This document shows positions 256-9,122 of a stretch of DNA of 32,000 nt, one piece after another. Position 1 is the first letter of the stretch. Each line of letters starts with the position of its first letter. The translations under genes and the position numbers were made by a program. The notes below the pieces were generated by a model that saw nothing but the letters and a program-made list of their open reading frames with translations, ran no database searches and had not been told where the DNA came from. Source of the DNA: Promethearchaeia archaeon (GTDB lineage Archaea > Asgardarchaeota > Lokiarchaeia > Sigyniarchaeales > SOKP01); NCBI GenBank assembly GCA_046497275.1, contig JAWOFX010000175.1:1993-33992 (forward strand), given 5' to 3'.

Positions 256-906
256 ATCGGTCTTAAAGATAAACTTTTCCCAAAGAAGGGAAGTGACAAA
301 GATATCACAATAACCAAAGCGAAAAGCCATATTCGAAAACTTGCATTGATGAACAAAAATTACACTAAACGAGCTGAGATCAGTAGAAAGAATGCTAAAA
401 TTGCCTTGAAGCGTGGTGAAAAAAATAGAGCAAAGAACTATTTAATACAATATAAAAGTTATCAAAATAAAATTGACCGAACAAATAATATTCGGTCAAA
501 AATAGAAAGACAAATTCAAGCAATAGAAGAAGGGCAATTGGTTTCTCAAACTGGAGATCTAATGGGCGGAATGAGAGATGAACTTAAAGAAATTGCTACT
601 ACTGCATCACCTACCAGAGCAGCGGAAATAAATGAAGATGCTGAATTATATGTCACTGAAATAGAGGAAGCTGCAGAAATATTAGCTGGAGATCCAGAAA
701 TTGATTTGGCTATTGATGTGAATGATGAATTAGAACAATTAGAGACGGAAATGTTGCTTGAGCAAGGAGGCACAATGCCTGAAGTCCCTTCAGACGAATT
801 ACAATATATCTCTGAATTTGATACGGAATTAGAAGAACCTGAACTTCAAGATAAAGAAAAGTTAGAGAAAGAAATTGAAAAGTTAAGAAAAGAATTAGAA
901 GAATAA
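256..906 (+). CDS. snf7: ESCRT-III / Snf7-family protein, Vps20/32/60 class (about 216 aa; proposed non-canonical ATC start, ORF track starts at TTG 346)
   Basis: Basic N-terminal helical hairpin (AKIALKRGEKNRAKNYLIQYKSYQNKIDRTNNIRSKIERQIQAIE), acidic C-terminal half, MPEVPSD (MIM2-like) and a terminal amphipathic helix LEKEIEKLRKELEE. The in-frame upstream extension IGLKDKLFPKKGS resembles the typical MG-x-F-x-K Snf7 N-terminus. Confidence 0.88.
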   Translation: MGLKDKLFPKKGSDKDITITKAKSHIRKLALMNKNYTKRAEISRKNAKIALKRGEKNRAKNYLIQYKSYQNKIDRTNNIRSKIERQIQAIEEGQLVSQTGDLMGGMRDELKEIATTASPTRAAEINEDAELYVTEIEEAAEILAGDPEIDLAIDVNDELEQLETEMLLEQGGTMPEVPSDELQYISEFDTELEEPELQDKEKLEKEIEKLRKELEE

Positions 907-1012: not shown

Positions 1013-2038
1013 TTATTTGAAACTTCTTAGTGCAAAAACCATATTATTTAATTTCCGTATGGTAATCTCATAGGCAAAATTCTCTTCGAATGCATCCTTT
1101 AGGGGTTTAAATCCACAATCTGGTTTAATAATTAAATTTTCTTCTCCATATAATTCAATTGCTTTCTTTATAGTTTGTTTAATTGTTGAAGTCTCCTCAA
1201 CGTAATCTTCTATTTTACCATCTTTTTTTGGTTTAATCTTTGTTTCTACTGCCCCAAATCCAAGAAATTTATCATGCTGTTCAAAATGTGATTTTTCAAA
1301 AATGTCATAATTCTGTTCATTTGTTTGAAATTCATGATCTAAGATATTCACATTTGTTTCTAAGAGAATATCTCTCAAATTTGGGTTTAATTGACCACAG
1401 ACATGAATTGAAGAAAAACTAGATATACCTGAAATTGCTTTATTTAAGATCTCGATAATAAAATCTTTTGAATGAAACATTGTTCTTCGACCTACAATGA
1501 GACCTAAAATTGGCTCATCCATTGAGATAATATCGATACCCATATCATTATAAGCTTTTCCAATTTGTTTCATTATTTCTGCTAATTTCTCAACGATCCA
1601 TCCAACCATAATCGCTTTTGGTTCCTTAAAGAGCATAGGTTTTTTTCCCTCAGCCAAAGATCCTTTTAAAATGATCTCACTAGCTAAGGTAAATGGTCCA
1701 GTTAAACATGCTTTAGTTCCCTTGATTTTCTGTTTAAGAGTAGGATTATTATTCAAATATTCAACCAAAAATGTTCCATATTCTAAAGCAACGGATTTTT
1801 TTGGAAGCTCAAAATCACCATTTAAAAAAAATTGGTTATTATTCTCTTGTAGTTCTGGAATTGTTTGGGATAATGGGGTTAAAAATTGAGAGATCATTGA
1901 AACCAATTGCGGATAACATGGGAAATCGATTCCAATATTGATTTGGTCCTGAAAAGCGCGCTCCATGTTGACTGGGGTATTTTCCAAGGGGATACTCCCT
2001 ACAACCGTTGTTGATAACCCAAGATCTTCCACTTTCAT
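1013..2038 (-). CDS. metE: Cobalamin-independent methionine synthase, catalytic-domain-only (core MetE) family
   Basis: 341 aa with TTVVGSIP at the N-terminus, KACLTGPFTLA, ISMDEP, and Zn ligands in IHVCG (HxC), DHEF (E) and PDCGF (C). It lacks the folate-binding N-terminal half. Confidence 0.8.
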   Translation of the reverse strand: MKVEDLGLSTTVVGSIPLENTPVNMERAFQDQINIGIDFPCYPQLVSMISQFLTPLSQTIPELQENNNQFFLNGDFELPKKSVALEYGTFLVEYLNNNPTLKQKIKGTKACLTGPFTLASEIILKGSLAEGKKPMLFKEPKAIMVGWIVEKLAEIMKQIGKAYNDMGIDIISMDEPILGLIVGRRTMFHSKDFIIEILNKAISGISSFSSIHVCGQLNPNLRDILLETNVNILDHEFQTNEQNYDIFEKSHFEQHDKFLGFGAVETKIKPKKDGKIEDYVEETSTIKQTIKKAIELYGEENLIIKPDCGFKPLKDAFEENFAYEITIRKLNNMVFALRSFK

Positions 2039-2092: not shown

Positions 2093-4246
2093 TTAGCTAA
2101 AATATTTCTTATTATCAAACTTGCGCCCAATATTTCGTATCGACTCATCCTCTCTGATTCGACCATCTAGATTTCGAATTTTTTTATTTATTATGTAGAG
2201 GTCTTGCTTAAGATTTTTAAACGCTCTTAAATAATCCACTTCAGTGATTTTTCCTTCATCAAACTTGGAATCTAAGTTTTTTAAAGTTTCAATAATACTG
2301 AATCTTTCTTTTTTTAATTCGAGCATATGTTCTTGGTTTTCATCTTTTTCTTCAAAAAGACCATCGTTTTGATACTTGCTTGGATCAAATGATAAATCAT
2401 TATCTCTAAAAAATTCTGATAGATAATTTCGATTATAATCATGAATAGAAGGATTATTCCTATTTGTATTATATAATGATTCAGAAGATCGATTTAATGA
2501 TTCTGCGTTTATAAAATCGCTCAAAGCTCTGTCAAGATTACTCTTCACATTATATCCTTCTTTTTGAGCTCGTTCCAATTTTTTCATCAAAATATTCTTA
2601 TCTTCAGGATTTAATGGATTTGGTTGGTTTCTAGCAAAAATTCGTGAATCGTAATTCTGATATCTATTTGGATATAATATATTTTGGAATTGGAAATTGT
2701 TTGGATCATTAACATAATTCGGATGATTTTGATATTGATGAGGATATTGATGGGGGTATGAGGAGACCGGTTGATAGAGGTGGGGCTGATTATTTTGAAG
2801 AGTTGAATATTCTTGTGAATAAGGCGGTATATTATAGGGATTTATAAAATAATTTGGTGGAGGGGTTGAATTTTGGTTATAATGTTGATTCTGATTATTT
2901 CCTCGAAAATAATCATTTTGAGGAGGAAAAGTATTATTATTGTGATAACTATTGGGAGAATTTTGAAACCTAGTAGTTCTTTGGTGTTGAAGACCTAAAT
3001 GATCTGAGTCGAAATTTTTCTCATTATTGAGTTTGCATTTTAAACTGAAGAACGAATTGATTCCATCTTCGATAAAATTCTTTAAATTCGTAAGATCTAT
3101 TTTTAAATTTTCAATTATATTAGCAGATTTTTTGTCATAAATAGCAGTTTCATCGAAATTTCTTGCGAGTAAAATATATTCAATAACTCTTGAAATTGCT
3201 TTATTTGGGAGAGAAAATTCATATTCCCCATAGGCGAATTTTACAAAAAGTCTTTTGAATAACTTTCCTTTTTCTTTGATTCTCTGAAGATCATCTACAG
3301 GGGCTTTAAATATTAGTTCTTGCTTTGTCTTTAATAATCCATATTCATGAACAAATGATAAATCTAAATTGGTAATAAATAAGATGCCTTTATTTCTTTT
3401 GAATATATCTTGGTAATTTGTACCATTGGATAATTTAGCATTGATCGCATAAACTGGTTTTTCATCTTCTGCTAAATTTATAAACCTTTTGTACTCAGTA
3501 AAATATTTATTAATCTTTTCGATAAATGAGAGGTTTTTTTTTATAGAATCGATATCTTTATTCATTGATTCTATATTACTTTCAATAAAATCTCTAATTG
3601 ATTGATTACTTCTATATAGATTTTCTAATATTCCTTCAATAATTCTTATGCTAGTATTAGGTTGAGAATAAATGTCAAAAAAGTATTCTTTATTAAGCGA
3701 AAGGTGATGAAAATGAATACTTATTTTCTCCATCATTTGATCTTCAATATATTTCACAAGTTTAAACAAAGAAAGGAGTTCTGCTTCCATTTTAGGGAAA
3801 TGATAGCATTTTATAGGTGGAGCTCTTGCTTTTTTTATTTTTTGTCTTAACACATAAAGTCCATTAACAAGATCCCTGAGAGGATCGATAAAATTTCGTG
3901 TTTCTTTAATTAATTCTAAAAAAGACTGTTCTAATTTTTCTTTTTTTTCATAAATATTAATAATCCGATGAGAATGGCATTTTGGACAAGATTTAATATA
4001 TTGTGTGATCTGGATTACATTATCACTCTCACAGTCTTTACATATTTTTATTGTTTCACCTTTCTTAGAATCGGATTCCTTTATGTCTATATTTTTTGAA
4101 TTACAATCTTGGCATACAAATGTTTCTACTTTATCATCATCTAAACAATCAGAGCAACAACTAGCACCACAATTCTCACAATAATAAGCTAAAGGCTCTC
4201 TTCCTTGGCAGAATCTACAGAAATTTTCTGATTTATGCTCTGACAT
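2093..4246 (-). CDS. Multidomain protein: CxxC Zn fingers, coiled coil, PH-like fold, N/Q/P/Y low-complexity region, C-terminal steadiness-box/SHOCT-like hairpin (putative ESCRT-associated adaptor)
   Basis: 717-aa ORF with ATG and upstream AAAGGT. Six CxxC pairs lie in residues 10-90. The domain assignments are by visual pattern only; the CDS itself is secure, its function is not. Confidence 0.6.
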   Translation of the reverse strand: MSEHKSENFCRFCQGREPLAYYCENCGASCCSDCLDDDKVETFVCQDCNSKNIDIKESDSKKGETIKICKDCESDNVIQITQYIKSCPKCHSHRIINIYEKKEKLEQSFLELIKETRNFIDPLRDLVNGLYVLRQKIKKARAPPIKCYHFPKMEAELLSLFKLVKYIEDQMMEKISIHFHHLSLNKEYFFDIYSQPNTSIRIIEGILENLYRSNQSIRDFIESNIESMNKDIDSIKKNLSFIEKINKYFTEYKRFINLAEDEKPVYAINAKLSNGTNYQDIFKRNKGILFITNLDLSFVHEYGLLKTKQELIFKAPVDDLQRIKEKGKLFKRLFVKFAYGEYEFSLPNKAISRVIEYILLARNFDETAIYDKKSANIIENLKIDLTNLKNFIEDGINSFFSLKCKLNNEKNFDSDHLGLQHQRTTRFQNSPNSYHNNNTFPPQNDYFRGNNQNQHYNQNSTPPPNYFINPYNIPPYSQEYSTLQNNQPHLYQPVSSYPHQYPHQYQNHPNYVNDPNNFQFQNILYPNRYQNYDSRIFARNQPNPLNPEDKNILMKKLERAQKEGYNVKSNLDRALSDFINAESLNRSSESLYNTNRNNPSIHDYNRNYLSEFFRDNDLSFDPSKYQNDGLFEEKDENQEHMLELKKERFSIIETLKNLDSKFDEGKITEVDYLRAFKNLKQDLYIINKKIRNLDGRIREDESIRNIGRKFDNKKYFS

Positions 4247-4490: not shown

Positions 4491-4784
4491 CTATTTTACT
4501 ATTTTTATTTTCTCCCCTAATGCTTGTCCAGGGAGTCCCGCTTTTTTAAAATAAGCACGAACAGCACCATTATTCCCATGTGCGCGGGTTATTTGTCCTT
4601 TTAACTCTTTTCCACTTGGACTATACCATACGACTGTTCTTCCAATAAGTTTATTTGCTACTTTCCTTGTATTTATATTTGGAAACACTAGTACGCATTG
4701 TTTAGGATGAATTACATGTCGTGATCTTCTGTAATTTGCTATCCTACCCTCCATGCCAATAATCGTTGTTTTACTTTTACTCAT
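4491..4784 (-). CDS. rpl35ae: 50S ribosomal protein L35Ae (eL33)
   Basis: 97-aa basic protein with NYRRSRH, LIGRTVVWYSPSGKELKGQITRAHGNNGAVRAYF and GLPGQALG. Confidence 0.95.
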   Translation of the reverse strand: MSKSKTTIIGMEGRIANYRRSRHVIHPKQCVLVFPNINTRKVANKLIGRTVVWYSPSGKELKGQITRAHGNNGAVRAYFKKAGLPGQALGEKIKIVK

Positions 4785-7724: not shown

Positions 7725-8924
7725 CTACACTATTAATTCATATGCTTTTTTCCAAGCGTCTTTATTGATTTTATTAAACTTTTCCATGAAATCATCTTCC
7801 TTGAGATTTTCTTCTTGTTCAACAAGATCTCTGACATTTAAATAAATTTTTCTTTCCAAAGCATCAAATTCATTCATATAAGTTAACTTTTCTTTTTCAT
7901 TGACTTGCTTTTTGAAAGGTTCGATAAATTTTTCATGTTTTATCCAAAACCAATCTTCATCTTTTTTCTCATACGGACCTGGAGGGTTTACTTTTTGATC
8001 TTGTATCGGAAATGTATAAGGTTTATACATACTCAAACAAGGATGGTTGCTTCCTGTAAACCAATGAATTGATTTTTTCTCAGGAGGTTTTAAATGCGAA
8101 ACTTGAGAACCCACAGATTCAAAAGCACCATGCATACATATTCCAGCTTCATGCTCTCGCAAGAATTCCATCATCATATCAACTGTAATAGATCCTGCAG
8201 CATCAGTTAATAATTCTGTTGATTTTACTACTCGTGGAGTTAAAGGGATATTATCCCCGATAACTTTCGATTTGGCAAAAGTCTTAGCAAAATCAAAATC
8301 ATCATCATCTTTGCAATATTCGTTTTCAATAGCATGTTGAATAATCCCTTCTCTTCTCATGTCTCCCTTACCGCGAATTGATAAGCTATTAGATATAGCC
8401 CTTACATCCTTTACTTCCTCGACGATCCACCATTTATCAGATGTCTCTAATACATATGCTTCTTGATGATCTGCTATAATATAGGAATTATGATATAACA
8501 TTTTTCCGTTATATGCACAATTACCGCCTTGATTGTATTTTTCAAGAAGATCTATTATTGTATCAAGCGCACATTCTGCCGTTTTACATCGTTCTAATCC
8601 CAATCGTAAAAGATCCATCCCAAGTAATCCAGTTTTTCTTATTTTTTCTTTAGTATATACCGCCTCGTTGCCGATGGTTACCCCAAACTCGTTGGTACCC
8701 ATCTCCGCCCCCCACATCCACCACGGTTGGCTTAAAAGTACAGCATAGGTTTCTTTTACCTGAGGTATAGATATATAAGTGCATTCTACTTCATCTTCCT
8801 CATGAGTTCTGCGCGGTTGATGTGTTATTAATTGCACTTCATCACTCAGACGGTCACTATTTTTCCCAAAGATCGTATACTCATCTAAGGAAGCGTTTGG
8901 TAAGGATATTAAGGTATCACACAT
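7725..8924 (-). CDS. Peptidase C69 / secernin-like Ntn-hydrolase
   Basis: ATG at 8924 gives M-C-D-T-L (N-terminal Cys nucleophile), preceded by GTGA. Motifs FGKNSDR, PWWMWGAEMGTNEFGVTIGNEAV, GLLGMDLLRLGLER and QGG. Confidence 0.85.
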   Translation of the reverse strand: MCDTLISLPNASLDEYTIFGKNSDRLSDEVQLITHQPRRTHEEDEVECTYISIPQVKETYAVLLSQPWWMWGAEMGTNEFGVTIGNEAVYTKEKIRKTGLLGMDLLRLGLERCKTAECALDTIIDLLEKYNQGGNCAYNGKMLYHNSYIIADHQEAYVLETSDKWWIVEEVKDVRAISNSLSIRGKGDMRREGIIQHAIENEYCKDDDDFDFAKTFAKSKVIGDNIPLTPRVVKSTELLTDAAGSITVDMMMEFLREHEAGICMHGAFESVGSQVSHLKPPEKKSIHWFTGSNHPCLSMYKPYTFPIQDQKVNPPGPYEKKDEDWFWIKHEKFIEPFKKQVNEKEKLTYMNEFDALERKIYLNVRDLVEQEENLKEDDFMEKFNKINKDAWKKAYELIV

Positions 8925-9122
8925 AATTATCACATCGTGAAGTTTTAGAATTAATTAATTATCTTTTATTTGTTTTTAATTAGAATTGCAGTTTCTATAT
9001 TATATTATTAATCATTATTTTCTATTAACAAGAGTCCCAAATGAATAAAAATGAAATTGAGTAATTTTTATTCATTTTTCAAAGATTTTCAGTAGTAATT
9101 ATTTTGAAATCTTCTATTTGGG

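Follow-up and report, generated by a model that had tools for sequence, protein, structure and literature searches.

A Vps23-type steadiness box at the C-terminus of a zinc-ribbon and PH-domain protein from a Lokiarchaeial genome, with predicted packing on Vps28

In the 32,000 nucleotide stretch of DNA analyzed here, which we call the window (positions 1,993 to 33,992 of contig JAWOFX010000175.1, assembly GCA_046497275.1, from a Promethearchaeia archaeon of the Lokiarchaeial order Sigyniarchaeales; G+C ~30%), a minus-strand gene encodes a 717 amino acid protein, P0001, and the subject of this paper is the helical hairpin at its C-terminal end. [quoted passage not shown] A sequence-only reading of the window had proposed that the peptide encoded at 2171-2308 follows the SB pattern, that it forms an ESCRT-I-type box, with the SHOCT domain as the main alternative, and that this box could pair with other SB or Vps28 hairpins. 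Our analysis indicates that the hairpin is homologous to SBs of the Vps23 type, that P0001 is a plausible ESCRT-I headpiece subunit pairing with Vps28, as judged from complex prediction, and that the protein is an ortholog of the Asgard-specific family Znr_CC_PH_SB (cog.011556).

The 46-residue peptide quoted in that reading is the exact translation of the reverse complement of its interval, which places it on the minus strand, a point left unstated there; translation of the plus strand of the same interval meets stops throughout. The peptide corresponds to residues 647-692 of the open reading frame (ORF; Table 1) and is only the inner part of a hairpin that spans residues 628-714. More than 247 full-length homologs of P0001 were found in Lokiarchaeia/Promethearchaeota metagenome bins, with 46-96% identity and lengths of about 650-745 amino acids, and their existing annotation is 'hypothetical' or 'B-box zinc finger protein' and nothing else. 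NCBIfam gave zero matches to the 717 amino acid protein or to its C-terminus, and Rfam and tRNA scans of the whole window detected nothing. The gene for ribosomal protein L35Ae in the window marks the DNA as archaeal.

The hairpin structure was modeled in AlphaFold2 (AF2) with an alignment (A1) of the C-termini of 32 non-redundant family members, which is also the basis of the hairpin profile used below. The model consists of two helices joined by a short turn, with a mean predicted local distance difference test score (pLDDT) of 86 and a core of about 98. Comparison of the model with 350,542 PDB chains by Foldseek is led by chains of the Vps23 C-terminus, the Vps28 N-terminus and the human ESCRT-I headpiece (2f6m_C, 2f66_A, 2p22_B, 2caz_D/A, and 6vme), which superimpose with a root-mean-square deviation (rmsd) of 0.5-0.8 Å over 57-61 columns, a template modelling score (TMt) of 0.74-0.91 and a probability of about 1.0. 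The E-values of these matches are weak, as is expected of a 60-residue hairpin. Within the turn, G46 and I48 (A1 numbering) are nearly invariant, and 114 of the 121 full-length proteins of the family carry the motif G-x-[ILVM]-[ST]-x2-3-[DE]-[YF]. The register of the G-x-I turn given by the HMMER alignment to yeast Vps23 agrees with its earlier placement.

At the sequence level, Vps23_core (PF09454) is the best Pfam match to the C-terminal 98 amino acids (residues 620-717; 20.3 bits, E 5.5e-4), pairing residues 630-679 with positions 2-51 of the hidden Markov model (HMM), and on the whole 717 amino acid protein it scores 16.2 bits. SHOCT (PF09851) was not listed by the Pfam scan for the 98 amino acid C-terminus or for the full-length protein. 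It appears on the bare 46-mer only, where Vps23_core reaches 14.5 bits versus 12.9 bits for SHOCT (E about 0.1, HMM positions 2-22 of 28), a score that misses the SHOCT membership threshold of 27 bits. When the members of A1 were scanned one by one, Vps23_core was matched in 26 of the 32 (best E 5e-5, sub-threshold) and SHOCT in seven (best E 0.0038), and weak matches to CdvA (PF18822) were seen in eight (best E 0.0089). The direct scoring of the two models therefore places Vps23_core ahead, though below its own gathering threshold.

A search with the A1 profile against 177,635 distinct PDB sequences puts the yeast Vps23 core (2f66_A, 2p22_A, and 2caz_A) at ranks 1-3 with E-values of 0.015-0.025, and three of the four following ranks, behind one unrelated Tektin-3, go to headpiece constructs of the Vps28 N-terminus (E 0.07-0.12). 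The alignments contain no gaps over 57-63 residues and cover both helices together with the G-x-I turn; human TSG101 is absent from this search at E<=10. An exhaustive search of 1.84 billion representatives with the same profile gave 133 matches at E<=1e-3, nearly all of them at protein C-termini, and no evident eukaryote-type protein was seen among these 133, the representatives being unannotated. Pfam scanning of 71 of the matches found Vps23_core in 24 (best 1.4e-7), UQ_con in 15, UEV in 12, bPH_3 in 20, GRAM in nine and CdvA in three; SHOCT was outside the top 25 Pfam families among them. Two of the retrieved proteins, P0188 and P0189 (E about 1e-7), have UQ_con/UEV N-termini and a C-terminal Vps23_core that scores above threshold (31.8 and 28.6 bits). 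By hhalign, A1 aligns to 15 Asgard UEV-Vps23 hairpins with 98.5% probability, an E-value of 3.1e-15 and 63 gapless columns, and to the Vps28 N-terminal hairpin in the identical register with an E-value of 2e-4. One of the UEV-Vps23 proteins, P0168, also gives a weak SHOCT match (14.5 bits), so that cross-matching to SHOCT is something SB turns do in general. We read the hairpin as an SB because the exhaustive profile search and hhalign retrieve and confirm the Asgard UEV-Vps23 proteins, which is the decisive test, and its homology to the Vps23-type SB is secure. The link to the eukaryotic proteins is made by the marginal E-values to yeast Vps23, by structure, and by transitive homology through Asgard UEV-Vps23. 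The sequence-only observation of an SB pattern at this place is confirmed by the exact peptide, the AF2 hairpin, the PDB profile search and Foldseek, its likeness to the SB going beyond chance, and its reading as an ESCRT-I-type box and not as SHOCT is supported by the Pfam scores, the counts within A1 and the hhalign result.

The complex of the hairpin with Vps28 from the same genome was predicted in three runs from Vps28 residues 1-95 and SB residues 627-717, both entered as alignments. The pair scored 0.78, and the best of three controls scored 0.00. Of 80 solved complexes 58 attain this mark, and so do two of 110 mismatched pairs; as our own alignments served as input, these counts are only rough. 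The runs shared at least 38% of their contacts and the partner pLDDT was at least 65. In the predicted interface, Vps28 residues 9-25 and 33-42 lie against SB residues 662-663 and 669-688. The structure of the Vps23 C-terminus with the Vps28 N-terminus has already been solved (2F6M, 2F66, 2P22, and 6VME), and for this reason the pass shows likeness to that complex and may stem from the predictor's memory of it. The co-fold supports Vps28 binding by the SB without demonstrating it. The pairing with Vps28 hairpins that had been suggested from the sequence is supported by these scores (0.78 against 0.00 for the controls) as a prediction that may owe something to the solved complex.

The rest of P0001 was modeled from residues 1-435 with a pLDDT of 91.8 and a predicted template modelling score (pTM) of 0.80. 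The N-terminal zinc module (residues 1-97) is modeled as beta-rich with a pLDDT of 91-96, and its cysteines at positions 10, 13, 23, 26, 31, 34, 45, 48, 69, 72, 87, and 90 do not vary among 52 diverse members and form three CxxC...CxxC sets. It is followed by the long helices and the PH-fold domain, and by a further helix at residues 386-427. Foldseek of the N-terminal model (window 2966-4228) gave PH-containing proteins as the best matches, namely DH-PH RhoGEFs, the Lam6 PH-like domain and the dynamin stalk-PH. The combination of a helical module with a PH domain recalls these proteins, but a relationship to RhoGEFs or dynamin was considered and not supported: the Foldseek E-values are 3e-6 to 1e-4, yet the TM-score is about 0.25 and the rmsd is about 20 Å. 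Because the global TM-score is low, we take these matches to reflect the predicted PH fold plus helices only.

Between the PH region and the SB lies a linker that is probably disordered, with a pLDDT under 50 from residue 428 onward and a composition of 37 N, 19 P, 18 Y, and 16 Q in residues 436-620. A PPxY motif is found within the linker of 56 of 121 family members, and no P[ST]AP motif occurs in the 717 amino acid protein. A second motif in the linker and another at the extreme C-terminus are conserved (Table 1); Asgard clades outside the Lokiarchaeia end in another conserved tail (...Y-x-L-x-N-N). The tail and linker motifs are possible short linear interaction motifs. The published text and supplements that we searched make no mention of the linker motif, the tail motif or the PPxY.

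Table 1. Features of the P0001 gene and its neighbors, in window coordinates.
Feature	Position	Strand	Basis
717 amino acid gene (P0001), ortholog within Znr_CC_PH_SB (cog.011556), an Asgard family	2093..4246	-	ORF, homologs, gene order as in GC14_75
SB helix 1, residues 628-663	2258..2365	-	AF2; with helix 2 aligned to Vps23_core HMM 2-51
Hairpin turn E-G-K-I-T, residues 664-668	2243..2257	-	AF2; G and I nearly invariant
SB helix 2, residues 669-714 (669-688, predicted Vps28-contacting face)	2105..2242	-	AF2 and complex prediction (A1 residues 50-69)
C-terminal tail GRKFDNKKYFS, residues 707-717	2096..2128	-	[KR][KR]?[YF][FY][ST] end in 83/121 Lokiarchaeial members
Three Cys4 zinc ribbons, residues 7-97	3956..4228	-	Invariant Cys, AF2, weak zf-B_box match
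Long helical/coiled-coil region, residues 98-256	3479..3955	-	AF2 helices 98-141, 153-184, 197-251, pLDDT about 98
PH-fold domain, residues 264-362	3161..3457	-	AF2, seven strands and capping helix (sandwich 264-345); Foldseek; bPH_3 in 20 and GRAM in nine of 71 relatives
N/Q/P/Y-rich linker, residues 436-626, with PPNY at 463-466	2369..2941	-	Composition, pLDDT
Linker motif YNRNYLSEFF, residues 604-613	2408..2437	-	Form Y-x-R-N-H-L-S-E-F-F in 100/121 members
Snf7/ESCRT-III gene, convergent neighbor	346..906	+	Pfam Snf7 E 1.6e-11; GC14_75 equivalent labeled Vps20
MetE-like	1013-2038		
Ribosomal protein L35Ae	4491-4784		
C69 peptidase	7725-8933		

In the literature, an Asgard-specific family named Znr_CC_PH_SB or Znr_PH_CC_SB (cog.011556) was described with exactly the architecture of P0001 and was suggested to be 'a likely ESCRT-I component' that is 'likely to be ancestral in Asgardarchaeota' and whose PH domain is 'expected to be membrane associated' (Makarova et al., 2024, mBio, PMC10936438). 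The neighborhood table of the same paper gives, for Lokiarchaeum GC14_75, the order PepD(C69) - L35Ae - cog.011556 - MetE - Vps20, and the window shows this order, plus two additional genes that separate L35Ae from the peptidase. P0001 has the zinc ribbons, the helical region and PH domain, the C-terminal SB and the GC14_75-like context of cog.011556; the assignment is made by architecture and gene order. As the same architecture and gene order were already described, our finding is a rediscovery of a published family, whose SB and likely ESCRT-I role were proposed in 2024 by comparing sequences and models. To it we add the controlled co-fold with Vps28, the conserved linker and tail motifs, and a tally of how often Snf7 lies nearby in distant genomes.

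Of the 301 genomes sampled from the phylum, 223 contain a match to the N-terminal profile, as do 73 of 90 high-quality genomes and 58 of 70 genera, and most have just one copy. For the Snf7 adjacency, five distant genomes were picked for contiguity alone; in all five a Snf7 gene lies <=10 kb from the family gene, and three of them have it directly next door in convergent orientation. Since the two genes stay close in five distant genomes, their pairing is old. In the window, the Snf7 ORF, read from a TTG start at 346, aligns to the Pfam Snf7 model only from model position 23, and its N-terminal helix may start upstream of 346.

The genome (3.85 Mb, about 99% complete) encodes other ESCRT components. 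Vps22, Vps25, Vps4, and a Snf7 protein are found together on one contig (C39). The Vps25 homolog (L009:7911-8822 (-) = G000:C39), 303 amino acids long, has a charged coiled-coil N-extension of ~130 residues before its ESCRT-II domain. Vps28, a 214 amino acid protein encoded on contig C33, scores 23.9 bits, just below the Pfam threshold of 24.5, and its relatives carry PF03997. Ubiquitin and an E2 are encoded as well. A Pfam search of the genome with PF09454 returned the P0001 gene and no second Vps23_core gene, the UEV model (PF05743) returned noise alone (E 0.126), and no UEV-SB fusion was found by the Vps23_core, UEV, UQ_con, and hairpin-profile searches. The UQ_con matches are a stand-alone E2 and a 578 amino acid protein without an SB (L011:1405-3141 (+) = G000:C45), which has three UBC/UEV/RWD-like repeats, weakly matched by UQ_con, and a C-terminal Cys-rich finger. 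This protein may be the ubiquitin-binding UEV-type protein of the genome, encoded apart from any SB.

The hairpin-core profile finds a single significant paralogue in the genome, P0258 (L006:8667-10445 (+) = G000:C24), an E/K/P-rich protein of 592 amino acids with a hairpin at its C-terminus (residues about 525-592; E 1.4e-5). P0258 is mostly of low complexity, is encoded directly after the rpS13-S4-S11 genes, and belongs to a Lokiarchaeial family of its own (P0218, P0232-P0234, P0239, and P0246); it is a candidate for a third headpiece subunit. A weaker hairpin, with the turn G-K-M-D-E-N-D-Y and a weak match to the Vps28 N-terminal region, ends a 466 amino acid protein on contig C158 (L004:1495-2895 (-)), which begins with an IFT52 GIFT domain (E 4e-12, above the Pfam threshold) followed by an acidic linker.

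A probable explanation is that the hairpin at residues 628-714 is the SB that closes a multidomain, Asgard-specific adaptor of the Znr_CC_PH_SB family and forms a headpiece with Vps28. In such an arrangement, the second SB helix, mainly, would pack on the N-terminal hairpin of the Vps28 encoded in this genome, at its first helix and turn, and the Vps28 C-terminal domain would make the link to ESCRT-II (Vps22/Vps25), through which ESCRT-III and Vps4 would be reached. The zinc ribbons and the PH domain, held on a long disordered tether, would supply membrane and possibly cargo recognition, a part that falls to the UEV domain in eukaryotic Vps23. The sequence, the Vps23-type homology of the hairpin, the domain architecture and the conserved Snf7 linkage are observations of this work, together with the fold prediction. 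Vps28 binding by the SB is inferred, with in silico support, and so are attachment of the PH domain to membranes and whatever part the zinc ribbons may play.

Several points weigh against this explanation. The direct Vps23_core score of 20.3 bits is below the Pfam gathering threshold of 26.8 bits, a threshold that is operational and no property of the fold. The E-values of the PDB sequence and Foldseek searches are individually marginal (0.015-0.5), the module being short, and the helical hairpin is a widespread fold. In the complex prediction one run of three came out at 0.00 (the other two gave 0.78), and the passing score itself may be no more than a likeness to a solved complex. The coiled-coil stalk that stands ahead of the SB in Vps23 is replaced in P0001 by a disordered linker. 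To our knowledge, members of Znr_CC_PH_SB are known from sequence and prediction alone.

One alternative is that the hairpin is a true SB whose main partner is another SB protein, such as the C24 paralogue or the SB-like N-extensions of Vps22 and Vps25, so that P0001 would be linked directly to ESCRT-II or ESCRT-III. The paralogous hairpin of P0258 does exist in the genome, Vps22 and Vps25 of Asgard archaea were reported to contain SB-like segments (Makarova et al., 2024, PMC10936438), a different, free-standing Lokiarchaeial SB protein was reported to interact with Vps22 as well as Vps28 in the yeast two-hybrid system (Hatano et al., 2022, PMC9192718), and the conserved Snf7 neighbor would fit a direct link of this kind. 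We consider it unlikely, as the pairing of Vps28 with the SB scored well; moreover, the eukaryotic headpiece is built of three hairpins, and other SB partners may join Vps28 without displacing it.

Another option is an antiparallel coiled-coil hairpin of SB-like or CdvA-like type that forms only homo-oligomers, or stabilizes the protein it belongs to, outside any Vps28-containing ESCRT-I. It would account for the weak CdvA matches (8 of 32 and 3 of 71), for the complex run that scored 0.00, and for the position of the P0001 gene outside the Vps22/25/4 cluster. A similarity between SBs and CdvA was noted before (Makarova et al., 2024, PMC10936438), and the weak CdvA matches are consistent with this known similarity and not with CdvA membership. 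Against a hairpin of this type stand the two runs at 0.78 with controls at 0.00 and the fact that Vps23-type SBs are its closest sequence relatives; the conserved Snf7 adjacency ties it to ESCRT, and the two-hybrid binding of Vps28 and Vps22 was seen with a Lokiarchaeial SB, though in a protein different from P0001 (Hatano et al., 2022, PMC9192718). We therefore give it a small chance. The suggestion that the hairpin is a SHOCT domain, a short C-terminal oligomerization module unrelated to ESCRT, draws on the SHOCT-like G-x-I-x-x-x-[DE]-Y turn and on the weak matches to the 46-mer and to 7 of 32 members, and is largely refuted and extremely improbable, given that SHOCT never reaches 27 bits and covers about 20 turn residues, that Vps23_core scores higher, covers both helices and is matched in far more members, that the PDB profile, Foldseek and hhalign all point to ESCRT-I hairpins and not to SHOCT, and that a hairpin of 87 residues, with helices of 36 and 46, far exceeds a domain of 28.

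With P0001 read as an SB protein of the ESCRT-I headpiece, a bolder and rather doubtful extension can be raised. In Lokiarchaeia, for which no UEV-SB fusion was found here, Znr_CC_PH_SB might be the functional equivalent of Vps23, anchored by its PH domain and possibly reading ubiquitin or cargo through the zinc ribbons, with a headpiece made with Vps28 and perhaps with the C24 paralogue as a Vps37-like third hairpin. The tail and linker motifs might couple it to the neighboring Vps20-type ESCRT-III protein, and the whole could be a second, partly autonomous pre-eukaryotic route from ESCRT-I to ESCRT-III. More generally, a true SB with predicted docking on Vps28 in a widespread single-copy protein supports the existence of Asgard ESCRT-I adaptors other than UEV-Vps23, here with PH and zinc-ribbon domains. 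P0001 contributes a further ortholog and in silico detail, and no new kind of system; its predicted Vps28 interface residues, its tail motif and the Snf7 linkage are concrete handles for experiments.

P0001 was compared with four known systems. With SHOCT (PF09851) it shares the G-x-I-x-x-x-E-Y turn and the C-terminal position, but the match is sub-threshold and limited to the turn, and the hairpin of P0001 is three times longer and homologous to Vps23-type SBs. With the Asgard UEV-Vps23 proteins (cog.005825, 'E2 fused to Vps23 core domain'; Hatano et al., 2022, PMC9192718; Lu et al., 2023, preprint) it shares a homologous SB; those proteins are about 250 amino acids long and have a UEV/E2-like ubiquitin-binding N-terminus, whereas P0001 combines zinc ribbons with a helical region and a PH domain. 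Its likeness to the SB of eukaryotic Vps23/TSG101 (PF09454; 2F66, 2F6M, 2CAZ, 2P22, and 6VME) lies in the C-terminal two-helix hairpin with its G-x-[IV] turn, which superimposes within 0.5-0.8 Å and is predicted to pack on the Vps28 N-terminal hairpin. P0001 differs from it in being without a UEV domain and without the arrangement of a P-rich region followed by a stalk, no Vps37/Mvb12-type stalk partner having been identified, and in its longer helices (36 and 46 residues), the extra conserved tail after helix 2 and its sub-threshold Pfam score. The closest counterpart is Znr_CC_PH_SB (cog.011556) itself, with three zinc ribbons, a helical/coiled-coil region, a PH domain, a C-terminal SB, the same neighbors and a phylum-wide spread; between the two there is no essential difference, and P0001 is the ortholog of this family in another Lokiarchaeial genome.

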